A stretch of DNA of 62,970 nucleotides, the filler included, from Reclinomonas americana ATCC 50394 (taxonomy: Eukaryota), in the NCBI GenBank assembly GCA_048213135.1. It is 4 parts of 4 records of this genome, joined end to end, with 100 filler letters (N's around TTAATTAATTAA, not from the genome) between each part and the next. Parts side by side here need not be neighbours in the genome. Positions count along the whole stretch, not along the records: positions 60,964 to 62,970 come from AFZH01017334.1; 3 more parts are not named here. One strand, given 5' to 3'. A program made the translations under genes and the position numbers. The notes under the pieces were generated by a model. The model worked only from the letters and a program-made list of their open reading frames with translations. It searched no databases and was not told the origin of the DNA. This document shows positions 6,523 to 62,970 of the stretch, one piece after another; the first letter of the stretch is position 1; every line of letters begins with the position of its first letter.

Positions 6523-9500
6523 TTATGGTTCTGTGCCGCCAAAGCTGAAGCCACCGCCTCGTACTCGTGATGCGCCGAGCGGATGTTGCACCTTCAGGTC
6601 GGGCATCTCCTGCGAGGCGCCCTTGTCGCGCTGCATGTGCTCTCTCCGCTTCTGCTCGTAGTACTTCTTCTTGACATCCTGCATCTCCCTCGACAGTCGC
6701 TCGATTTCGAACTTGTACTCGTTGACTTGCGCCTGTCAATAGCCAAGCCAGTGAGTGAGGCTGCCACACACACTTCCCCTAATCCATCATCATCACACGC
6801 ACCTGGAACATGTTGAGTTCGGCGGCCATCGACTTCATCTGGTGCGTCTTCTCCTTGAGTGTGGACTGGTAGACGTTGAGCTGCTCGGCCACCTCCGGAC
6901 CGGGTTGGCGCGCCAGAATCTTCTTGAGCTCCACATACAGCTTCTCCTTCTCCTGGATCAGCATGTCCTTCTCGACCACCTCCTCGGTCTTCGCAATCAG
7001 GCGCTTTTGCAGCGTCTGAATCTTCTGGATCATCTCGAACGTCGATGGATCCGAGCCCTCCAGCTTGCGCCAGCGGTGCACGTTGAGCGGGTTGTCGAGC
7101 TCCTCTGAGAGGGCGCGCACACGGCCGCGCTCCTCGCGGAGCTCCTTTTGCAGTTGCACGACCTCGCGCTTCAGCTTGTCCACGTTGGAGACCGAGGCCT
7201 TGAGGATGTGCAACTCGCGGCGCAGCTCGTTGATCTTGCGCTTGAGGATCTTGATGTCGGTGAGACGGTTCGAGTACTGGATCTCGCCCTTGTTCAGCGT
7301 CGACTGTTGGATGCGGATCTTTTCGTACAGCAGCGCCAGCTCGTCATTTCTCCGAATCAGCTGCGTGCCGAGAATGTCACGCTCGTCCAGCACAATCTGC
7401 AATCGCGCGGCAAATGGTGAGCTTCACAGGAGGGCGAAAAGAGGGGAGGAGAAGGGGAGAGAGGGGTACACACCTCGTACTGCTTCTTCTGGCGCACGCG
7501 ATCGCGCTCGGCGTCGTGGATAATCGTCTGCAGGTTCTGGATTTCGGCCTTGTAGTTCTTGATGGAGGTTTCGGCGGCCTCCAGTTGCATCTTCAGGCGC
7601 AGCGTGTCGGCCATGAAGCCCTCCTTCTCCTTCTCGATCTTCAGCACCTGGAATTTCTCCTCGGCCAAAACTGCGCAGGGGGTGGAGGGAATGGTGAGCG
7701 GGAGGGGGAAGCACGCGACAATAGCAAGTATTCCCCGCCAAGCATGACAAGCATATCGATGCAGAAGCGAAAGCCCCAGAGTAGAATAGAGCGTGGAAGA
7801 AGCAAGCACACTCTCCCTCTTTCTCTCACGCATACAAGTCACCAAAAAGGCAGAGAAATATGAGAAAGAAACGCAAACAGACACACACACACACACAAAA
7901 ATCACAGAAAACTCGGGAAACGATGAGAACGACACACAAGCAGACACTCTCGCTCCCTCTTCAAGTGTAGTGCAGAAGGCTTATCCACATCAATCCCCTC
8001 ATCATCAAGATCAAAGACGGTGGAGACACACTCCCCTCACACTACACTCGTTCTGCAAGTCAAGCAAGAAGTGAACACAACTTTTTCCACACACACACAC
8101 ACACACTCATCCCACAGAACGACAACAATCCAAACTCAAAAATAAAGGTATAACTCTCCTTCATCTCTCAACTACGACAAAACAGAGCAACACAGAAGCA
8201 TCCACATGCACACTCTTCCTCGTTCCACAAGTCAAGAAGAAAGAGGAGAGCCCAGACTTTTCAAACACACACACACTAAGAAAAAGAAGGAAGAAACTCT
8301 CTTCCATCTCGTACTTCAAGAAGCAACACACACACACACCCCTCCTCATTACACATAACCACACAAATAAAGCGAAACCCCCTCTTTTCATCATGCCAAC
8401 AAGAACAGAAGCACACACTTCTCATACTACCACAGAACGACACCAATCAAGTGAAACCCCCTCTTTTCATCTTGTTCAGAAGGACAGAAGCACACACACT
8501 ACTCATAATTCCACAAACGACAACAATCTCAAGTCAACAAGAAGAGAACTCTGCTCATTTCATCACAAAACAAAGAGAAGCAACGGAAACATACACACAC
8601 GCGCGCGCACTCTCTCTCCCTCTTCCTCATTCCACAAAAGAGAAGAACCCTCACTTTACAAACACATACACTTGTAACCTCATTCCACAATTCGAAGTCA
8701 AGAAAAAAGAGAAACAACCACTTCCTCATTCTCCAAGATATGAATCTCCTCTCCTTCTTTCCCTTGCCCCCTCCCTTCCCCTTAACACCCCCTTGCCTTC
8801 CCCTCCCCGCACGCAACTCTTCTCCTTCGCGGCAATCTCATCCTTCAGCTGCTCAATCTGGTGGTTCATGATCTTGAACTTCTGGTGCAGCTCGGCAATC
8901 TCATCCTGCGCCTCGAGCAACTGCTTGCTGTACAAGTTGCGATCGGAGCGTACGGACTCGTAGAGAGCCTGCTGGTTCTTGAGCTTGACCTCGGACTCGG
9001 CAATGATCTTTTGCAGATCGAGAATCTCCATGTTGCGCATCTTGACGCGTTCCAGCGCTTTCTGTGCGTCCTCATGCGCACGCGAGGCCTCCTCAGCGTA
9101 CTTGTCCTTTTGCCGCTCCAGCTCGTTAATCTCGCGATTCAGCTGCATTGGGTGTCAGCACATGTGTGGCACACGACCTACAAACAAGTGGCGCTCTCTC
9201 CCGCAAAATCACCTGATGTAACGCCTGTCGATAGCCGCTCATCTCCTGCTCCATGTTCTTCTGGCGGCCCTCGGCAATCTTGATCGACGACTGTTGCTGT
9301 TGCGACTGGAACTCGCTCTTCAGCAAGTTCTTGTAGAGGATCTCCTTCTCGCGGTTGTACTCGGCGATCGTGCGCAGCGACTCCTGCAGCTTCTTCTTGG
9401 AGGCACCCAGTTCCTGATCTGCCGTCTCAATGCTGGCCTGCGCGTGAAAGGAACATTTTTCAGCAACGACAATCCCTTCCTCCTCAGCCCTCCCCCTCTC

Positions 9501-10813
9501 CTCTCTCCGCAACTCTCAGTTCGTGGTTCTCCTCCTCGATTTGCCGCTTGGCCGCCTCCAGCGCCTCGACCTTCTTCTTCAGGCCCTCGCTGACCTTGGC
9601 CACCTGCGCCTGTGTCCGCTTGACCTTGCTGATCTCCTCCTCCTTGACGCCCAACTGCGCCTGCATGTCCGAGTTCTGGGCCTGCAGGGTGGCGTTGTTG
9701 GAGATCTGGTTGTTCAGCTCGCCCTCGCGCTGCGACACGCGTTCCGTGGCGTCCTCGAGTTCACGAATCAGGCGTTCCGAGCGCAGCCTCTCGTCGGCCA
9801 CCTCGTCCTCCAGCTTCTTGATGATCTCCTGCTGACGGCCAATCTCGGCCTGCTTGCCGCCGACCTCGCCGGTTTGCACCTCAATCTGCTTGCGCAACTC
9901 CTTGATCATCTTCTCGTAGGTGGCCTTGCGGTTGTTCTGCACGTCGAGCTCGGCCAGCTGCTCATCATACTTCATGCGCAGCCGCGACACCTCGCTCTCC
10001 TTCTCCAGCTTCTCGTCCTCCAGCTGACGAATGCGCGAGCGCAGATCCACCGACTCCTTGCGCAGCGTGGCAATGAGCTGGTTCTGCGAGTCACGCTCCT
10101 CCGTCAACTCGGTCTTCACGCGCAGCAACTCGTTGACAGTGCTCTCCTGCCCCGCCGACAGATCCGCTCCCTTGCCCACGAGCTGCGACAGATGCTGAAT
10201 CTGCTGTTTCAGGTTCTGCACCGTCTCCTTGGCTCGCAGCTCACGCTCGTGCGCCGCCTCGTACATTCTCCACGCCTTGTCAATCTCCTGTGTATCGGAC
10301 ACACGCGATTTCAGATCATGATGCTCAAACGAGTTGCGTGTGTGTGAGGTGAATGACCTTTTGGAGAGCGGCAATGGTGTTCTGGTCATCCTGCGAGAGC
10401 TTGAGCGCCGTGTGTACCTTGGCGGCGTTGGCGACAATCTCCGAGTTGAGATCGTTGCACTTTTTGATCAGTCGCTTCTCCGACTCGCGCGACTTGCGCA
10501 GCGCCCGATGCAGCTTCTCATACTCAATGCGGAACTTCTCCAACGACTCGTCGCCAGAGAGCTCATTCAGCACCTGTGTGTGTGAGAGAGGGAGAGGGCG
10601 TGAGTGTGTGTGAGGCATGTCGTGTGGGGTTTGTGTGTGTGTGTAAACCTCTTGAAAGTCACGTTCAAGTGCCTCAAACGCGCCCTTACTGATCGCTCCA
10701 TCGTCGCCAACATCCGCTTTTTTCTGTGCGCGTGCACTGTGTTGTGAGTGGCCACACACACACACTCACACAGACAAGAGAGAGAGACAAACCGCGGCAG
10801 AAGTGTCGGCCAT
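6523..10813 (-). CDS. CFAP58: Cilia- and flagella-associated protein 58
   Basis: Highly conserved segments AFEALERDFQEVLNELSGDESLEKFRIEYEKLHRAL, YESVRSDRNLYSKQLLEAQDEI, ERDILGTQLIRRNDELALLYEKI, NPLNVHRWRKLEGSDP and LARQPGPE, with C-terminal GGGF. Confidence 0.95.
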
Positions 10814-25324: not shown

Positions 25325-30007
<4,683 letters not shown>

Positions 30008-44187: not shown

Positions 44188-46948
44188 TCAGCGCACGATC
44201 TCTGCTTCCACTGCCTCGCCACTGTTGCTGCTGCTGCTGCTGCTGGCTGATGACTTGGCGTCGCCAGGCGGCGATGGGGAGGCGGGTGGAGAAGTCGAGT
44301 CGCTGTTGCTCTTCAGAGCGAGCTCCATCAGCGTGTTCAGGCGGTCGACCATGGAGCGCGAGTTGTCCATCAGACCGGCCACAATCAGCGCATTGTCAAA
44401 CACCTTAGGGGGTGGGGGGGGGGGGATGGCGCACGCAGTGAGTCACGCGAATTCACGAAAAGTGGCGAGTGTTGTTTTTTGCTGGGCACACCTGCTCGAC
44501 GACGGTGCGAGCCAGCTCCGGCTTCGCGTCCTTGTTCTCGAAGAGGCCGACAATGACCGGGTGCGACGGGTTGAACTCGAGGCTCTGCATGCCAATGTCG
44601 GGAGCATTGTTGGAGTCCACCAGCTGCATCATGCGGCGATACGACGCGTTGACGTGGTCCACGACAATGGCCGGCGCAGTCACCAGGCGCTTGCTCGGCT
44701 GCGTGCGCACGAGTCAGACGATTGATGCAAACCGTATCACTTTTCCCCCCAGCTGCTGCGTTTCCCAACCTTGGCCACCATCACTCGATCGCTCAGCGTC
44801 GACTGGATCCAGGCGCCGAGCTCCTTCGCTTGTTCGGGGGTCAGTGAGCGCGCACCGGCACGGTCCGGCTCCACGGTGTCGGTCGGTGCCTCCGACGTCT
44901 CAATGTTGATGATCTTCCTGCTCCCGCGCCCCCGAGCACGTCAGCATATATACACCACCGCGCAGGCAAGCAATCGCCTCCATCAACGCAACTTGCCCAT
45001 GAACTCGCCCAGCGAGCTAAAGACAAAGTCGTCGGCCGACTGGTAGCTGAAAATCACCTCGGTGCCCTGGCGCTCAAACACCTCAAAGTACGGCGACTTG
45101 AGGGCGAATTCGCGGTTCGGGGCCAACAGGTAGTAAATGTCCTTTTGTGTTGCCGGCATGCGGTCGACATACGACTGCAGTGATCCGCGCTCCGCACTCT
45201 TGCTCGTCTCGTACCGCAGCAGCTTGGCAATGTCGCCCTTCACGTCGGGATCGGTCACCAGGCCCTCCTTCAGGAAGTTGCCAAACTCGTCAAAGAACGA
45301 CATGAACCACTCGGGACGGTTGCGTCCCTCCTGCACCACCACCACCACGGTGAGATGAAAAAGGAGAGCACGCCGGGTCAGTCGGTCACATGCATTTGCG
45401 TACCTCTTCGAGCCAGCGAATGATGCGCTTGGTGAGAATCGAGTTGAGCTTGCGGATGAGAACCGAGTCTTGGAGGTGTTCGCGGCTGAGGTTGAGTGGG
45501 AAATCGTCGCTGTCGACCACGCCCTTGACGAAGCGCAGCCAGTCGGGCAGAATGATCTTGCTGCGCGACTGAATCAACACGCGGCGCGAGTACAGCGACA
45601 CGCCCGACTCCATGCGACCCATGCCGAAGCGCTCCGAGTGACGCTGCGGAATGTAGAACACAGCCGAGATCATGAGCGGCACATCGGTCTGGAAGTGCAA
45701 GAAGCCGCGTGGCGTCTCGTCCTTGCCGGCGTGCGTCAGGAAGCGATAGAATTCCTCGTGCTCCGCCTCTGTCACACTGTGTGAAACGACGTGAGTTGAG
45801 AGAGCGAAAATGTCGGTCGGTCTCCTGCCAGACGCACCTCTTGCGATCGCGACGCCACAGCGCACCGACCGTGTTCACCTTTTCGCTATTGACCGTCACG
45901 GGGAAGCTGACAAAGTTGGAGTACTTGCGCACAATCTCCTCCACCACCATCTTGTTCGAGAACTGCTTGCAGTCGGGTCGAAGCTTGATTACGATCTTGG
46001 TGCCGGGTGCCACTCCCTCCGCCTTTGCAATCGTGTACTTGCCGGAGCTGCAGCGTGAGCGACGGGAGGTGAGTGGGCGACTGGTCGAGCAGTGCGATCG
46101 CCGACAATGGCAAAGGGGGGAAACAAACCCGTCGGACTCCCACACGTAGCCGGGACTGTCGGGATGGAAGCTCTTCGAGTAGACCGTCACATGCTCACCG
46201 ACCATGAACGACGAGTAGAAACCGACGCCAAACTGGCCAATGATCGCATCACCAGCCGAGGCCGCGGCCGCCGACGATCCCTCCTTGGACTCCTGCCGCA
46301 TCTTCTCGATGAAAGCGCGCGATCCGGAGCGCGCAATCGTGCCGAGATTGCTGACCAATTCCTCCTCCGTCATTCCCACGCCCGTATCGATAATCGTAAA
46401 CGTATTCAGCTTATCATCCAGTCGGATCGACACGCCCAGCTCCGACGGCACCTGATTCGTCTCGTGCTGCTGCGACAGGTATCGGAGCTTCTCCAGTGCA
46501 TCACTGGCATTGCTGACAAGCTCGCGAATAAACACTTCCTTGTCCGTGTACAGCGAGTTGGCCACAATGCGCAGCAGCTGCTGCGTCTCCGCCTGGAAGC
46601 GATGCTCCTGTGCCTCGCCTGCACACAAACCCGTTGTGTAAGCGCGCGGCATTGCGTCATGTGCGCGCACACACACACACACACAAAGACACACGCACCG
46701 ACTGCACGCTCGCTTGATGCTGTCGCTGCTGCTGTCGCTGCTGCATCATCCGTGCCTGCGCTGCCGGTCGACAGGAACATGCGCTGGAGTGCACTTTTAT
46801 GATAAGTTTACATATCAGTGACTTTTTTCGTGTTTTTTTCCTCACTCACCGCTGTGCATGCTCTTGCAGCAGTGAACAGGTGTGGCGATGAGGCCACACG
46901 TACGCACTGCAGTGCGCGCGTGAGGAACATCGTTTCTTGCGATTTCAT
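44188..46948 (-). CDS. TRAP1: Mitochondrial HSP90 (TRAP1/HSP75)
   Basis: FQAETQQLLRIVANSLYTDKEVFIRELVSNASDALEK, LGTIARSGS, IGQFGVGFYSSFMV, PLNLSRE and LEFNPSHP; Arg/Ser/Ala-rich presequence-like exon 1; no C-terminal MEEVD. Confidence 0.95.
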
Positions 46949-54573: not shown

Positions 54574-54673
54574 NNNNNNNNNNNNNNNNNNNNNNNNNNN
54601 NNNNNNNNNNNNNNNNNTTAATTAATTAANNNNNNNNNNNNNNNNNNNNNNNNNNNNNNNNNNNNNNNNNNNN
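54574..54673. other. Scaffold gap with TTAATTAATTAA spacer
   Basis: 100-nt N block containing the spacer, flanked by low-quality TACG-rich sequence. Confidence 0.95.
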
Positions 54674-55049: not shown

Positions 55050-58000
55050 CTACTTTTTCAGTTGGTGGCAGCTGCCAGCAACCGGTGCGAGCTGCACGGG
55101 GTGAGTGGAGAGGATGACGCTCTGCGTGCATTGTGTTGGTGAGTGGCAGTCACGTCACTGGTGGGAGGGGGGCAGCAAACGCAACGTGGCAGCAGAAGAT
55201 GGAGGAACCATGCTTGAAGCCGAAATCAGCGGGCTGCGAGATCCGGGGCATCTGTGAGCTTGCCTGCCTGTACACAGGTATACAAGGTGCGTGTATGTAT
55301 GTGCACGACTTACCGGGCAACCCTGCTTGCCAACGTACTCGGTCAGGTACTTGCCCGGGTGAACAATGGCATTCTGTGCGGGTGCGGGGTGAGTGCGTTT
55401 TTTGTGAGTGAGAGCCATTCTTATCTGCTACATCCAATCATTACTGACCTTGCCAGGCTGGCCCGCGGGTCCGCGCTTTCCAGCCTGCAGCAGTGCGGGG
55501 TGAGTGAACAGCGCGGTGAGCAAAGAGACAAGTGACACGTACGCACCGGTCCGCGATGGCCAATGGGACCCGCCGGGCCATCAGCACCTCGTGCGCCGCG
55601 CTTCCCGGCCAGCCCCTGCTTTCCTCGCGGTCCAGTCTGCATTGGGAGGAGGGAGGCATGAGCGGGACTGGCAGGAGTGGTGCAGATATGTAACGTGTCA
55701 CACACCTTGCCCTTCTCTCCATCCTTGCCGTTCTTGCCGCTCTTTCCAGCAGGGCCAGCCGGACCAGGGGTCTGGCCGTGGTGCGCAAGTGAGTCTCTCA
55801 TGGTGTTGGTCAGCAATCAAAACTGACTCTGAAACTCACGTTGTTGTCCTTGCCAGGTGGTCCACACGGTCCCGCAGATCCACTCTGCGGACGCACATCA
55901 TGAGGGCACACCGCAACGCTGCTTCACAAGACGACGGATTGTGTTGCAACCTTGCCCTTCTTGCCGTTCTTGCCAGCGGGTCCCGGCTTGCCAGGGTGGC
56001 CTTCCTGGAAATTGCACGCAAGTGAGTAATGGTGGTGACAGCGAGCTCGTTGGATCACGACCTGCACATACCGGACCAGCCTTGCCGAGCGGACCCTTCG
56101 GTCCCGGCTGTGCAGACACAGATGCAGGCGATGAGATGACAGAGGTAGACTCTTCACGGGTCTCAGCATCGGGCTGTACCTTGCCAGGATGGCCGTCCTT
56201 GCCGGGCTTGCCGTCGTGTCCGGGAGGTCCGGGTGTCTGCCAGCAAGAATTCAGTACGGCTTACTCGTGTGGCAGGGAGCGTGCAACAAGAGCAAGGTAC
56301 ACACACCTTGTTGTCCTTGCCGTTCTTACCCGCCGGTCCGCGTGGGCCAGCAGGTCCATCCTGCGTGCATGTTTCAGTTGCTCATGTGCCTCTTTTCATG
56401 ATTAGGGAGCCGAACGCCCCAACACACCTTGCCGGGCTTGCCATCCTTACCGGGCTTGCCATTCTGCCAGTACATGACTGTGAGTGGAACGAGCGACGAA
56501 CCACAGGCTCAAGGGCACACACACCGCTCCATCCTTGCCGGGTTTGCCCGGGTGACCGCGAGGGCCAGTCTGTTTCGTGATGTTAGTGGACGACACTTCT
56601 GGAAGTGAGGAGGTACGCGCGCGGCATACCTTTCCGTTCTTTCCCTCAGTACCCGGAGGTCCTCGTGGGCCAGCCGGACCGCGCTGGCGAAAACAAGAGA
56701 GACCTCACTCAGCACGGTGAAGTGACAAGGAACAATGACAACTTTAGATTCGATCACACCTTGCCGTCTTTGCCATCCTTTCCGTCCTTGCCCGGCTTTC
56801 CGCTCTTGCCTTTCTTGCCGGCCGGGCCGCGCGGACCCGTCTCCTGCGCAATGCAGAATGAGGCACATCAATACGCACGTAGTATGTGCAGAAAACGCAC
56901 AAGATTGTCCTTGCCCGGTTTGCCAGCCGGTCCAGCAGGTCCCGCCGGGCCAGTCTGCCCACACGAACTGTGAATCAGTCCGTGCGCACCAATCGCGAGG
57001 GGAATGCACGAACACGATGCGCGCACCTTGCCTCGCTTACCGCGCTTGCCGGACTTGCCGGGATGGCCATTCTTGCCCGGCTGTTGGAGTGTGCGCACGA
57101 ATTTAGGTTGTGTCCACGATCGACATACAGCAGGCACCGAATGCGCAAGGGGGACGTCGACGCAAACCTCGCCGTCCTTGCCGTCCAGCCCCTTTGGTCC
57201 TTGGGGTCCAGGCTTGCCGTCCTAGCAGTAGGATTGCTTCTGCGTCAGTCACAACTGCTTCTTGTGAGTGTGTGGAAGTGCAAGTGCATACCTTGCCGTT
57301 CTTGCCGTGCTTGCCGTTCTTGCCATTCTTGCCAGCGAGCCCACGAGCACCGGGCTGTGCAGTTATTCACACGGCGTGAGTGCGTGCGCGAGTGAGACAG
57401 GAACAAAGCAACGACCACAGCGTCACACCTCTCCATCCTTGCCCTTCTTTCCAGCAGGTCCTCGTGTGCCGGCCGGTCCACGCTACGCATGTAAACCGCA
57501 GGTAAGTAACAAGCACGGTCGGCGTGTTTGTAAGTGGGCAAGAAGGGCACCTTGCCGTCCTTGCCATTCTTGCCATTCTTGCCGCGAGGGCCAGTCTGCA
57601 GCAAGGAGGTCAGCAAGCGCTAAGCGGAATCAAGACTACACACACATACAAGTGGGAAGGCGCACCGTGCAATAATCTGTGCGAAGCACCTCACTGGTCA
57701 GGGACTCACGACCACCAAGAAACGCAGTGACGCATGTATACCTTTCTCGTTGTCGGCACTCTCGGAGAACTGGAACTCCTCCTCTTCGTCCTCCTCACTC
57801 TCTTCCTCTTCTTCCTCCACCTCGGTAGCTTCCTCGTTGTTCTCCTCCTCCTCTTCCTCCTCCTCCTCCTCCTGCTCCTCGACAAAAAAGTCTGCTGCCT
57901 CTTCGTCGATAGCAGACTCGTCCTCCTCGTCAAGCAAGTCGTCTTGCATATCCTCGTCGTCCACGAAAAGCTCCTCGTCCACTACATGAGATCAAAGAGA

Positions 58001-58329
58001 GTGTGAAACGGTGAACGCGCGAAAATGAAACGCATGTGTGCGCGGGAAAAAACGCCGCGGCACACTCTCGCTCTTCCGCTTCTCTGTGTGCGGTATTGCA
58101 CTCACCGTTGCTATCCATCACCGCGTCCTCGAACATCTCCGCTTCCATTGTTTCCGCCGATGCTGTGTCTGCAACAGTCGCGCGCGCGCGCGAGTGAGTG
58201 TGGAGCTTTCAAGGGTGGGGGCAGCGAGTTCTCAGAACCGGAGGCAGACGCACGAGCAAAGCAAGCCACACACGTGACAGCCAGCAATGCTAGCAAGAGC
58301 CCAAATGTTGCCACCTTGGAAGACAACAT
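55050..58329 (-). CDS. Secreted collagen-like protein B: signal peptide, Glu/Asp-rich domain, about 325-aa Gly-X-Y region, short Cys-containing C-terminal domain
   Basis: Signal MLSSKVATFGLLLALLAVTCVACFARASA; acidic exon 57741-57982; 11-nt microexon 57666-57676; 18 Gly-X-Y exons separated by phase-0 introns; C-terminal NAIVHPGKYLTEYVGKQGCP-PADFGFKHGSSIFCCH-SVILSTHPVQLAPVAGSCHQLKK*. Confidence 0.85.
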
Positions 58330-58549
58330 GGCGTGCCTTCTCTCCAGATTTGTGCAAAGAGTAATTCAAAGTAGCCGTTGTGAGATTTTGGCGCGCAAAG
58401 AAGCAGCGGAGACGAGAAAAATCACACCAAGCCTCTCTTTACTGTCACCTTTAAAGCGGGCTGTGGCCTGATCGTTTCTTGCACTCCACTCTCTCGCACG
58501 CAGTCTTCATGATCATGCGGCGCCGTGCAACACGTACTACGCGTTGCTT

Positions 58550-60630
58550 CTACTTTCCACCTGCAGGGTGGCAGGTTCCCTTGATCGGGCGAAGCACATT
58601 CTTCGCGTCGAAGACGATGCCCTGCACGCAGTCGAGACCATCGTCAATCACGGCTTGAGCACGCAAGTCAATGAGACGAAGAGAGAAAAAAACACACCTC
58701 GCAGCACTTGAACTGCTTCTTGCCTTTAGCCTTGAAGGCAAACTCGCCATTCTACACGCGCGACAGCATAAGAGACAAATGGTGGCAACCGCTTGAGGTA
58801 AGACGAAACAATACCTTGCAGCCAGCAACTCCGATGCGATACACAAAATAGCTGCCATCGGTGGCCACAGCGTTCTGCGAGGGGGCGTGTACGCTTGAGG
58901 CGAGTGCAACTGAATGCGCGAGTGTAAAATACGCACCTTTCCGTTCGGGCCAGCTGGGCCAACCGGGCCGGCCTAGGAATGCAGCGTAGCGAGTAATGTG
59001 TTTGTCAGTGACACACTATGCTTGCATGCACGCAGAGTGCTGCATCACACCACTCACCGGTCCCTGAGCTCCACGCGGGCCAGGCGGACCAAGCTCTCCT
59101 TGCTTGCCGTCGCTGCCTGCAGCTCCTGGCAGACCTTGCGGTCCAGTCTGCACACACGATAAGCTTGTAAGTACCACTCCACACGCCAGTCTTCACACCA
59201 TGTTCGTGGCGAATGTACCTTGCCTGGCTTGCCGTCCTTGCCTGCTTTGCCCGGCTTGCCTGCGGGTCCACGCTTGCCCGGCTGTGCTAGTTGGTGAGCT
59301 GCAGAAAGGGCGTATTGCAGTGAACAGTGCAGGCTGGAAGCAAACGGACCTTGCCATCGGGGCCGGCGGGTCCGCGTGGTCCGTCAGCGCCATTCTGCAG
59401 GAGAGTTAATAACACGACCAATAATAGTCGACTGAACCGCCAAGACACACAAACACACCTTGCCAGGCTTGCCATTCGGTCCGGCAGGTCCTTGCGGTCC
59501 ACTGTGGCCGAGCTACACAAAAATAAAACAGTCGTGAGTTCAACTCCAGCAACGCACCACTTCGAGCACGCCCACCTTGCCAGCCTCGCCGCGCTTTCCT
59601 GGCAGTCCTTGCTGCACGCGCGCGCACTCGCGTGGTGAGCAACAACACACACACACACACATAGAAACACACTCGAAAGAGAAGAAAACTAACCTTGCCG
59701 TCTTTGCCATCCTTGCCGTCCTTTCCCGCAGGTCCACGAGCTCCTGGCTGAAACAGTGAAAGAAGGTGAGCACGATGGGCTACCCGTGGTTAGCGTTTTG
59801 CACACGCTCACCTTGCCGTCGTGACCAGGCTTGCCAGGCGGACCCGCCGGTCCGGGAGCACCGTTCTGTCGGCAAGCGCAAACTCGTGTGAGCGTGTGCA
59901 GATACAACTACGCGCACAGGAGTGCACAAACCTTGCCAGGCTTGCCATCCTTGCCATCGAGTCCAGGCTGGAGGTGCAGGCGACAAGGGATGAGTGAACA
60001 TGTCAAGGAGGCCAGAGTGCTTTCTCTGCACGCGCACACCTTGCCGTCTTCGCCTTTCTGTCCGGCGGGTCCGCGTGGCCCACGTCTGCCAGTCTTGCCC
60101 GCTATTCCCGCGGGTCCTCGAGGACCGGGTGGACCAGCCTGCATGGAAAGAGACGCGATGAGCCCGACATGCAACATTGCACGCAGCCAGCCGCGCACGC
60201 CATCTCCCAAACAGACACGCACCTTGCCAGGCTTGCCATCCTTGCCGTCCTTACCGTTCTGCGCCCTGCAGATTCAGCGAACAAGGGCAGCCACAATCGA
60301 GAAAAATGCAATATGAGCGATACCTTGCCGTCCTCGCCCAGGGGGCCAGCAGGTCCACGCGCACCAGGCTTGGGGTTTCTGCTGGTGAGCACACTGCAGG
60401 GTCGCTCGCCACACCGAACGTTCTGCTCACAAACCTTGCCATCTTTTCCAGGCTGGCCAGCTGGGCCACGAGGTCCGGGAGCGCCAGTCTGCACAACGCA
60501 GAACAAGGGGCGTGAGAGAGAGAGAGAGAGTGAGACGTCAACGAGTGCGACTGCGACACGAGCGACATAAACATGCCTCGCCACGCGGGCCTCGTTTGCC
60601 ACGAGCACCATCATGGCCGTCAAGACCCGG
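58550..60630 (-). CDS. Collagen-like protein A (paralog of B), 5' end lost at the gap
   Basis: 14 visible Gly-X-Y exons (252 codons, uninterrupted), then NAVATDGSYFVYRIGVAGCK-NGEFAFKAKGKKQFKCCE-GIVFDAKNVLRPIKGTCHPAGGK*, homologous to gene B. One GC-AG intron (donor at 60576). Confidence 0.85.
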
Positions 60631-60656
60631 CTGCATGCACGGCATTGTCAGCGCTA

Positions 60657-60765
<109 letters not shown>

Positions 60766-60863
60766 GTACGTACGTACACCTACCTACCTACCGTACCACC
60801 GTACCGTACCGTACCGTTCGTTCCGTTCCGTTACCGTACCGTACGTACCGTACCGTCCGTTCC

Positions 60864-60963
60864 NNNNNNNNNNNNNNNNNNNNNNNNNNNNNNNNNNNNN
60901 NNNNNNNTTAATTAATTAANNNNNNNNNNNNNNNNNNNNNNNNNNNNNNNNNNNNNNNNNNNN
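60864..60963. other. Scaffold gap with TTAATTAATTAA spacer
   Basis: 100-nt N block containing the spacer. Confidence 0.95.
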
Positions 60964-62438
60964 CAGCGCGGCCGGCAATGCGGTTGTGGGAGGCACTGCG
61001 ACTGTGACTGGTCTGGTGACTGGCGGCAGCTTGACGACGGCTGGTAATGTGAGCGCGGCCGGCAATGCGATTGTCGGCGGCACTGCAACTGTCACTGGGT
61101 TGGTTACTGGCGGCAGCCTGACCACGGCCGGCAACTTGAGTGCGGCCGGCAATGCGATTGTCGGTGGGAGTGTTGCAGTTGGGTCAACCTTGTCTGCAAC
61201 GGGTCTAATCACCGGCGGCAACGTGTCGACTGCTGGCTCGCTTAGTGCTGGTGGACTTGTGACTGGCGGTAGTCTCACAACGGCCGGCAATGTTTTTGCA
61301 GCCGGTTTATTGTCTGCCGGCGGCAATCTGTCGGTAACCGGAACTGCTACCATTACTGGTGGCCTCACTTCCGCCGGCGCAGTTAGTGTCAGTGGATCGT
61401 CAACGTTCACTGTTGGTACCGGCACCACTTCTCTGGGAGGCGCGTTGTCTGTGACAGGGACAACTACTATGTCTTCGACTCTGACTGTTGGTGGCTTGTT
61501 GGCTGCTGATGGTGGCTTGCGCCTTGCTTCCAGTGCGACTGCTATTGGTGCCACACCCTTTGTTGCTCGTCTCCAGTACATTGATTCGGGTGTAGATCAG
61601 GTGAGCAGCGTAATGTGTGTTGTTTGTGCCTCCCTCTCGCCCAGTTTTACTCACTTGCATATTCTGTTCGTTAGCTCTGGCTGCGTGGTGCTCATGCGTA
61701 TGTGGAGTTGACAACGACGGGCTCCGGCTCTCCCTCGGACTTGCGGCTGAAAACGAATGTTCAGAACATTGACGACGCTCTTGGCGCGATTCGTCGGCTG
61801 CAGGGACACACTTTTGATTGGGCCGAGGTGCGTCCGCTCTCTTACGCTTTTTGTTAGTTGGATTGGCGCCAATTGTTGCATTCTTTCGCCCGCAGACTGC
61901 CAAGGAGATTGGATATGTCCCTGGAAGGAAATCTATCGGATTCATCGCCCAGGAAGTGGAACAGGTATTCCCGCAGCTGGTCTCGCTGCAGACGCGCCCT
62001 GATGGATCGGTACGTGAAGTGGTATGCTTGGGTGTTTATTGGGGTCTGTCATGAGCTTAAGTCTTGTGTACACAGTCGATTCGTCGTGTGGATTACGGGC
62101 CTGTGGCTGCAATCTTGGTTGAGGCCGTGAAAGAGCTCGAGGCAAGAGCTGCGCCGGTGGAGCGCGTTGAAATTGCTGAAGCACGAGTAGATGCCGCTGA
62201 GACGCGGGTGGAGGCCGCTGAGACCCGTTTGAGGATTACCGAAAGCGATGCAAAGGCCACTGCTGACCGCCTTCAAGCTCTCGAGGCTCTGGTGCTGCGG
62301 ATGAACGCCGTAGATTCCAGTCAGCCGTGGTGGCGTGACGCCGCCCTGATCAACTTGCTTTGCTGTGTACTTTTGTGCATTGCTGCGCTGTTGTTCTGCA
62401 TCGGGGCGGTTGCTCGCCTTCGCGGTGGCAAGCAATAA
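60964..62438 (+). CDS. Fibre-like G/T/A/V repeat protein with Peptidase S74 (intramolecular chaperone) domain, coiled-coil and C-terminal TM; 5' partial
   Basis: 29-aa repeats SAAGNA(V/I)VGGTATVTGLVTGGSLTTAGN(V/L); SDLRLKTNVQNIDDALGAIRRLQGHTFDW; IGFIAQEVEQVFPQLV; VDYGPVAAILVEAVKEL; TM ALINLLCCVLLCIAALLFCIGAV. Introns at 61601-61674, 61828-61895 and 62010-62075. Confidence 0.88.
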
Positions 62439-62480: not shown

Positions 62481-62970
62481 TCATGAGAACACTGTGACGA
62501 GCTCGGCGCCAGAACCGCGAACCATGACGACGCGCTTCAGATTGTGCGTCAATTTCTCCATGTACTCCATGTCTGTGTGAAACAGTGTTAGTGCGTGTGT
62601 GTCGGGCGTGCATGTGTTTTGGGACGTAACAGTAGGAAGGTGGATAAGTTTCTTGCGGAGCAGGCATGTTGATGACCACAAGATCGGCTTCCGAGGAATG
62701 CGACAGAATGGTCTTGTTCAGTGTCTTGGCCGAGTGCGTAAACTCCTCACGCGAAGTGCGATCGCTGCAGAGCAATTGTGTCAACACATGACGACGCAGC
62801 AGATGGGCAAGGAAAAGCAGCGTGTGGCGCGAAACTCCAGTGTCGACTCGAGATCAGTGCCGCCATAAGTCTGTGCCATCAGCTCATCCATATCGAGCAT
62901 TGACTCGGCACGGCTCATTTGTGCCGACTCCATGTATCGGTGGCGGCTCTGTGATGCCTGATCCACGTAT
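62481..62970 (-). CDS. Cation-chloride cotransporter (SLC12/KCC-like), C-terminal exons only
   Basis: HSAKTLNKTILSHSSEADLVVINMPAP...YMEYMEKLTHNLKRVVMVRGSGAELVTVFS* is the conserved SLC12 C-terminus. Confidence 0.9.

Follow-up and report, generated by a model that had tools for sequence, protein, structure and literature searches.

Schwarzer et al. 2007 is reportedly the work cited for the chaperone domain of fibre and spike proteins, the Peptidase_S74 or intramolecular chaperone (ICA) domain. This domain drives the folding and trimerisation of the fibre or spike that precedes it, and its Ser-Lys dyad performs a self-cleavage (PMC3742443). In eukaryotic cells the one well-studied role of the chaperone is in MYRF, where it serves to free a transcription factor from the endoplasmic reticulum; there the ICA domain cleaves a membrane-bound precursor and liberates an N-terminal trimer (PMC3742443). 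Among viruses of eukaryotes, fibres with a C-terminal Peptidase_S74 domain are described as ubiquitous in polinton-like viruses (PLVs) of most eukaryotic groups, integrated in protist genomes, with some of these fibres fused to collagen repeats (PMC12220804), and a giant virus of Heterosigma is reported to encode a 1,529-residue protein that combines an FhaB-like part with S74 (PMC13659346). Here we describe a gene near the end of a 62,970-nt stretch of DNA from the protist Reclinomonas americana ATCC 50394 (assembly GCA_048213135.1; the whole stretch is hereafter called the window), which joins a viral type of cargo, a fibre, with a membrane tether and host-type introns. On balance we think it probable that this is a real, intron-split nuclear gene of viral-fibre ancestry, whose product would be a membrane-tethered precursor that releases its fibre by self-cleavage.

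The window consists of four contigs of 28711, 25762, 6190 and 2007 bp, arranged from largest to smallest, and the fibre gene lies on the last of them (AFZH01017334.1, 60964-62970). Synteny is not to be read across the linkers between them, because these join separate contigs; the "gap" at 60864-60963 within which a previous, sequence-only reading of this DNA had supposed the N-terminus to be hidden is one such linker, and the sequence to its left is uninformative on that N-terminus. The visible part of the gene, at 60965-62438 on the plus strand, is the 3' portion of a four-exon gene that encodes at least 421 residues and is 5'-truncated at the contig edge (Table 1). All three introns, of 74, 68 and 66 nt, are GT-AG, with donor sites GTGAGC, GTGCGT and GTACGT and pyrimidine-rich tracts before the acceptors, and each exon comprises a whole number of codons; introns 1 and 2 shift the frame, and intron 3 contains an in-frame stop. 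The boundaries of intron 1 are set by splice consensus and frame alone, as the 17 residues that follow it have no homologue for checking. A second copy of the gene (a paralogue), sought elsewhere in the window with an S74 profile, was not found.

The gene model is independently supported, because splicing restores one contiguous S74 domain. Against Pfam PF13884, whose curated cut-off is 22 bits, exon 2 covers profile positions 1-31 (31.6 bits) and exon 3 positions 37-57 (27.9 bits), and a profile built from eight phage-like C-termini aligns spliced residues 230-325 as a single stretch at 50.0 bits, compared with only 25.2, 14.7 and 7.3 bits on the three unspliced frames. In the same manner, exons 2 and 3 match adjoining positions of tail-fibre families in PHROG (phrog_5668, 1465-1496 and then 1497-1522), and 12 of the 13 PHROG families matched by exon 2 at E <= 0.01 belong to the tail category. 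The dyad motif SDLRLK is intact and aligns with the SD..LK of the eight relatives, the further S74 motifs GFIAQEVE, VDY..ILVEAVKEL and VDYGPVAAILVEAVKEL are present, and the domain sits C-terminal to a fibre region, preceded by 212 residues of beta-solenoid repeats. A search of solved structures with exon 2 alone gave no match at E <= 1; an S74 profile that includes the window exons does match the solved ICA domain of MYRF (7dc3, E 1.6e-6) together with the tail-fibre chains 8jov and 6f45, with bit scores of 31.8 for the MYRF domain against 31.3 and 30.9 for the tail-fibre chains. By profile, dyad and position alike, then, the predicted fibre protein belongs to the Peptidase_S74 family.

The fibre region itself, encoded by exon 1, is of strongly biased composition (residues 1-212: 22% Gly, 17% Thr, 15% Ala, 12% Ser, 10% Val and 10% Leu) and begins, from the first base of the contig, with 2.3 copies of an 87-nt tandem unit encoding 29 residues (86% match), an array that probably explains why the assembly breaks at the contig start. 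The first two units differ at 14 bases and 2 residues, with 12 synonymous differences (proportion of synonymous differences, pS, 0.46) and 2 non-synonymous ones (pN 0.033), giving a pN/pS of about 0.07; the duplication is therefore old, and the protein sequence has been kept since under purifying selection on the repeats. Modelled with AlphaFold2 from an 18-row alignment of viral relatives, exon 1 forms a regular beta-solenoid of short strands, with a mean predicted local distance difference test (pLDDT) score of 73.5 and a predicted template-modelling (pTM) score of 0.70. Foldseek searches with this model returned no match at E <= 1e-3 among 56 rows from the PDB, where the weak rows were mostly generic beta-helices, and only two at that threshold from a viral library, with TM-scores of 0.28-0.39; among the weak viral matches, next to cyanophage fibre or baseplate proteins, are some from Pyramimonas orientalis virus, Ostreococcus mediterraneus virus 2 and Gaeavirus. 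At the level of sequence, 202 of 8000 scored candidates match exon 1 at E <= 1e-3 (best 4.9e-57); these relatives, 600-2000 residues long, resemble large fibres or adhesins, and several bear the name "filamentous hemagglutinin" in their source. PF13884 is carried by 8 of 120 exon 1 relatives among the matches listed, and in these eight both the N-termini and the PHROG matches are of the kind usual in phage long tail fibres; exon 1 itself matches the tail fibre family phrog_4549 (E 2.7e-4). Relatives of the repeats are also encoded at 37 viral loci, on contigs of 6 to 331 kb. Two viral contigs, L046 and L047 (the latter in a giant-virus bin), bear a 1382-residue open reading frame in which fibre and S74 alternate in tandem (fibre-S74-fibre-S74), each S74 module with an SD(R/S)RLK motif, so that this precursor would give two fibres if both modules cleave.

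What follows the S74 domain sets the predicted protein apart. Exon 4, modelled by AlphaFold2 from the single sequence (pLDDT 85.2), is helical from residue 8 to 80 and, after a three-residue break, from 84 to 117. The first helix, 73 residues long, continues the last helix of S74 and contains a heptad-like RVxAAET repeat; the second is a transmembrane (TM) helix, in which the highest 19-residue Kyte-Doolittle window reaches 3.05 (spliced residues 395-413, LLCCVLLCIAALLFCIGAV). Its N-terminal flank, WWRD, is net acidic, and its C-terminal flank, RLRGGKQ, carries three basic residues, with about 7-8 residues between the TM helix and the stop codon. The features noted earlier in this gene hold up well in Pfam, AlphaFold2 and hydropathy analysis: the order of fibre repeats, S74 domain with intact dyad, coiled coil and C-terminal TM helix is borne out, the three GT-AG introns have canonical junctions throughout, and the profile search recovers Peptidase_S74, its Ser and Lys codons lying at the very positions given before.

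Relatives of this C-terminal part were looked for widely. A word search of exon 4 against longer proteins among 5.8 billion clusters gave 4511 candidates, none at E <= 0.01, and HMMER against 1.84 billion representatives gave no true homologue at E <= 1e-3; three matches that passed this threshold were judged spurious, being low-complexity repeats of the "AAETRLD" type. Exon 2, searched against longer proteins, drew eight candidates sharing exact 5-residue words, none at E <= 1. Of the 599 pattern matches that a metagenome scan with exon 4 gave, three were confirmed, each confined to residues 3-36 (the end of S74), and in a viral scan 10 of 58 were confirmed, extending over residues 3-69 at most, with no TM segment in the six of those ten that were read; the ESM Atlas, queried with exon 4, yielded nothing but short clusters of bacterial hypothetical proteins. 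In 18 viral or metagenomic relatives the sequence beyond S74 was inspected, and not one carries a hydrophobic segment there. Fifteen of these end within about 15 residues of the domain, after a short helix, and the other three continue with soluble sequence (maximum 19-residue hydropathy 1.16), two of them being identical giant-virus-bin proteins with a second fibre-S74 module; nine of the 18 were recognised by a hidden Markov model built from eight of the same proteins, so that count is not independent. As judged from these comparisons, the helix and membrane anchor after S74 look like a new feature.

The setting of the gene is eukaryotic. Converging on it from the opposite strand, with only 42 nt between the two stop codons, is the sole further gene on the contig, the C-terminal part of a K-Cl cotransporter of the SLC12 family, whose introns (71 and 58 nt) are both GT-AG and whose translated tail ends MEYMEKLTHNLKRVVMVRGSGAELVTVFS. 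Each of its last two exons matches 16 solved chains, every one of them a K-Cl cotransporter or SLC12A4-7; an end-to-end alignment links the last exon to the C-terminus of SLC12A6. The Pfam SLC12 match to the tail is sub-threshold at 17.3 bits. The introns of the fibre gene, together with an intron-split cotransporter on the same contig, thus exclude phage or bacterial contamination; on this point the sequence-only reading is not merely upheld but strengthened by a cotransporter tail 42 nt away with introns of similar size. In trinucleotide profile the 2007-bp contig is no outlier among 2-kb pieces cut from the other contigs, its correlation with contigs 1 and 2 (0.84) being higher than that of 5 of 29 such pieces, and the gaps of 54-88 nt that separate the exons of a collagen-like gene on contig 3 also count toward a eukaryotic setting. 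An AATAAA lies about 20 nt past the cotransporter stop, within the shared 42 nt, and the two 3' untranslated regions must therefore overlap.

We favour a membrane-tethered precursor because all the sequence requirements of S74 are present and the stub that cleavage would leave bears both a helix and an anchor. The ancestor would have been a viral fibre gene of cyanophage, algal giant-virus or polinton-like virus type, and the product would run from a beta-solenoid fibre through a self-cleaving S74 chaperone and a helix of ~70 residues to a single C-terminal TM helix. Three chains would be held at the membrane by their C-terminal helices and put in register by the chaperone and the coiled coil; the fibre would then fold; the Ser-Lys dyad would cut at the Ser of SDLRLK; and the fibre would thereby be freed, while a stub of chaperone, coiled coil and TM helix would stay in the membrane. 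Judged by the basic tail RLRGGKQ, a type I topology is the likelier one, in which the lumenal or outer face would carry the fibre, an arrangement that would require an N-terminal signal peptide encoded beyond the contig.

Several facts weigh against this picture. The visible gene has neither a start codon nor a signal peptide, its N-terminus lying off the contig, and both gene model and splicing were read from the DNA sequence alone. The solenoid model is of a single chain, not of a trimer. No protein, metagenome or viral search yielded an orthologue or paralogue of the S74-helix-TM part that would attest its conservation across species. The contig is only 2007 bp long and shows little of the wider setting, be it cellular or a viral island. 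Finally, the GC content at third codon positions (GC3) of the fibre gene is 0.56 (0.51-0.63 in its exons) against 0.69-0.86 in 12 long frames of contigs 1 and 2, which run from stop to stop and may include some intron; the value for the cotransporter tail is 0.65. The low GC3 of the fibre gene points to a foreign or recent origin, to low expression or possibly to a different source organism.

The alternative that best survives, a real possibility though to our minds a doubtful one, is that the gene encodes the attachment fibre of an integrated eukaryotic virus (a giant-virus insertion, a PLV or a virophage) or of its remnant, with introns that were either gained after integration or native to the virus and with the cotransporter merely marking the edge of the insertion. 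The S74-ending fibres that are ubiquitous in PLVs (PMC12220804) and the FhaB-like protein with S74 of the Heterosigma virus (PMC13659346) provide ready precedents, and introns become weaker evidence of domestication given that endogenous giant-virus elements can carry spliceosomal introns, as those of green algae do (25-72 predicted; PMC9693826). To these may be added a GC3 below that of all 12 frames sampled from contigs 1 and 2, the weak fold matches of the solenoid (only two rows at E <= 1e-3 in the viral library), which include algal giant-virus proteins beside cyanophage ones, and the viral contigs, as long as 331 kb, that encode repeat relatives. Set against them are three introns within 1.47 kb that are comparable in length to the introns of the neighbouring cellular gene, the stop codon of that cellular gene just 42 nt off, the post-S74 hydrophobic segment present in 0/18 of the viral or metagenomic relatives, and the lack of any viral hallmark gene within the visible 2 kb. 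The word "domesticated", which the sequence-only reading had applied to the protein, accordingly goes further than the evidence does, given fibre-S74 viruses in protist DNA, introns in endogenous giant viruses, a GC3 of 0.56 and a contig of 2007 bp.

A different objection accepts the same protein and concerns its topology: with no signal peptide, the protein would be tail-anchored, fibre and chaperone would be cytosolic and cleavage would free a cytosolic trimer. The TM helix does end 8 residues short of the stop codon, the hallmark position of a tail anchor, and by its place alone would suit this arrangement equally well; MYRF, moreover, is a type II membrane protein whose ICA domain is cytosolic (PMC3742443). 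The flanks of the TM helix, three basic residues after it and the acidic WWRD before it, speak instead for a cytosolic C-terminus, and it is hard to see what an adhesin-type beta-solenoid fibre would do in the cytosol. Under the positive-inside rule, it is the basic flank of a TM segment that faces the cytosol. We regard this arrangement as rather unlikely, and a type I precursor with its fibre on the lumenal or outer face is the topology that the basic tail favours. Improbable, too, is a gene without function, either a relic in decay or a product of faulty assembly, as might be suspected from a short contig broken within a tandem repeat and from a tail for which relatives were not found; four open exons with canonical splice sites throughout, an intact catalytic dyad and conserved motifs, and a pN/pS of about 0.07 between repeat units all argue otherwise. 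An ordinary MYRF-type membrane-tethered transcription factor with its DNA-binding domain in the missing N-terminus, one of the outcomes that the sequence-only reading had named as refuting it, is very improbable indeed. An ICA domain followed by helix and TM is common to both, and the S74 profile gives the MYRF domain a score level with those of the phage chains (31.8 bits, the chains having 31.3 and 30.9). Yet fibre repeats without an NDT80/PhoG match at E <= 1 fill the 212 residues immediately before the ICA domain, the repeat array reaches the contig edge, and nothing, hence no MRF_C domain, follows the TM helix.

The remaining contigs carry features that do not bear directly on the fibre gene. 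On contig 3 lies a collagen-like gene with at least 32 Gly-X-Y mini-exons of 36-99 nt, many of exactly 54 nt, which mostly start after CAG and end in ...AAG|GT and are separated by gaps of 54-88 nt and one of 1341 nt; Pfam Collagen scores 33.1 bits on one of its frames, and the 54-nt exon pattern recalls the fibrillar collagen genes of animals. As a source of the missing N-terminus of the fibre gene it was rejected, since it sits on a different contig and is read from the other strand. Long microsatellites of the (CA)n and (GA)n types occur at 60640-60863 and in many introns of contigs 1 and 2, CGTAC-type repeats close contig 3, and dinucleotide repeats account for 512, 420 and 182 bases of contigs 1-3 and for none of contig 4. 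Contigs 1 and 2 hold fragmented ordinary cellular genes, among them one for an HSP90/TRAP1-like ATPase; a long coiled-coil protein was also noted.

Table 1. Positions of the fibre gene, its neighbour and other features, counted along the whole window.
Feature	Position	Strand	Basis or detail
Exon 1, 5'-truncated, 212-residue Gly/Thr/Ala/Ser/Val-rich repeats	60965-61600	+	Reading frame, repeat scan, AlphaFold2 model
87-nt tandem unit, 2.3 copies	60965-61164		Repeat scan
Intron 1, 74 nt, GTGAGC...TTCGTTAG	61601-61674	+	Exon 1 frame stops at 61711; exon 2 frame opens at 61675
Exon 2, linker and N-terminal half of Peptidase_S74	61675-61827	+	PF13884 and PHROG matches
Ser codon of SDLRLK, tcg	61735-61737	+	
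Lys codon of SDLRLK, aaa	61750-61752	+	
Intron 2, 68 nt, GTGCGT...CCCGCAG, interrupts the S74 domain	61828-61895	+	Flanking exons match successive profile positions
Exon 3, middle of S74 (GFIAQEVEQVFPQLV)	61896-62009	+	PF13884 positions 37-57
Intron 3, 66 nt, GTACGT...ACACAG	62010-62075	+	In-frame stop inside
Exon 4, S74 end (VDYGPVAAILVEAVKEL), long helix, TM helix, tail RLRGGKQ	62076-62438	+	Stop TAA 62436-62438
Long helix	about 62097-62315	+	AlphaFold2 model
TM helix	about 62340-62414	+	AlphaFold2 model, hydropathy
K-Cl cotransporter (SLC12) C-terminus, last three exons 62836-62969, 62631-62764, 62481-62572	62481-62969	-	Structure matches
Contig-joining linker, N44+TTAATTAATTAA+N44	28712-28811, 54574-54673, 60864-60963		Three identical copies
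Collagen-like gene	55446-60627	-	Contig 3; Pfam Collagen
(CA)n and (GA)n microsatellites	60640-60863		
HSP90/TRAP1-like ATPase	45378-46745	-	HATPase_c_3, 39.1 bits
Long coiled-coil protein	6779-10467	-	By eye only

If the fibre gene is expressed by the cell, it would represent a second, structural use of membrane-tethered self-release. We put forward only tentatively, and as a suggestion that may well prove wrong, the stronger form of this idea, a cell-encoded use of the phage chaperone distinct from that in MYRF, in which a membrane-anchored trimeric fibre precursor would fold on the membrane and cut itself free for a surface or secreted structure; as end uses the sequence-only reading had proposed, among others, a hair, scale, lorica or extrusome. 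If true, the order of fibre, ICA domain, helix and TM helix would be a plausible stepping stone to MYRF, with the fibre swapped for a DNA-binding domain; if the gene is instead part of an integrated virus, its product would be a viral fibre of known kind with a membrane anchor added, and of more modest interest. We found no published description of an intron-bearing cellular protein with fibre, S74, helix and TM in this order, in a search outside of which lay the architectures of PMC12220804 Fig. S6.

The nearest known systems each share one part of this design. The phage tail fibres and spikes with C-terminal S74, such as the long fibres of cyanophages (relatives P0001, P0005 and P0010), have the same Gly/Thr/Ala/Ser/Val-rich fibre followed by S74, and the SDxxLK dyad, the GFIAQEVE and ILVEAVKEL motifs and the PHROG tail-fibre families are common to both; the phage-type relatives, however, have no introns and end 0-6 residues past the S74 match (9/9 examined), whereas the window protein goes on for about 90 further residues of long helix and TM, and exact 5-residue words of its S74 domain are almost absent from database proteins (the eight candidates above, none of which scored). 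The fibres of giant viruses and PLVs of protists are likewise large and modular, with a C-terminal S74 domain in eukaryotic DNA (PMC12220804, PMC13659346), but the available text of these two reports mentions neither introns nor an anchor after S74, and in the viral loci examined here a post-S74 membrane anchor or introns were seen in 0/6 and 0/1. MYRF and the Dictyostelium protein MrfA are likewise products of cellular, intron-bearing genes, with the ICA domain between cargo and membrane anchor and the same logic of release by self-cleavage (PMC3742443, PMC3828593). Their cargo is a DNA-binding domain of the Ndt80 type, whereas that of the window protein is a fibre. MYRF has a large lumenal C-terminal region after its TM segment; unlike in MYRF and MrfA, the TM helix of the window protein stands at the extreme C-terminus with nothing after it, and the orientation is probably opposite to theirs. 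Judged on the visible upstream region and on the lack of a post-TM domain, the predicted protein lies outside the MYRF family, sharing with it the device for membrane-tethered self-release and with the viral fibres the cargo that this device would set free.

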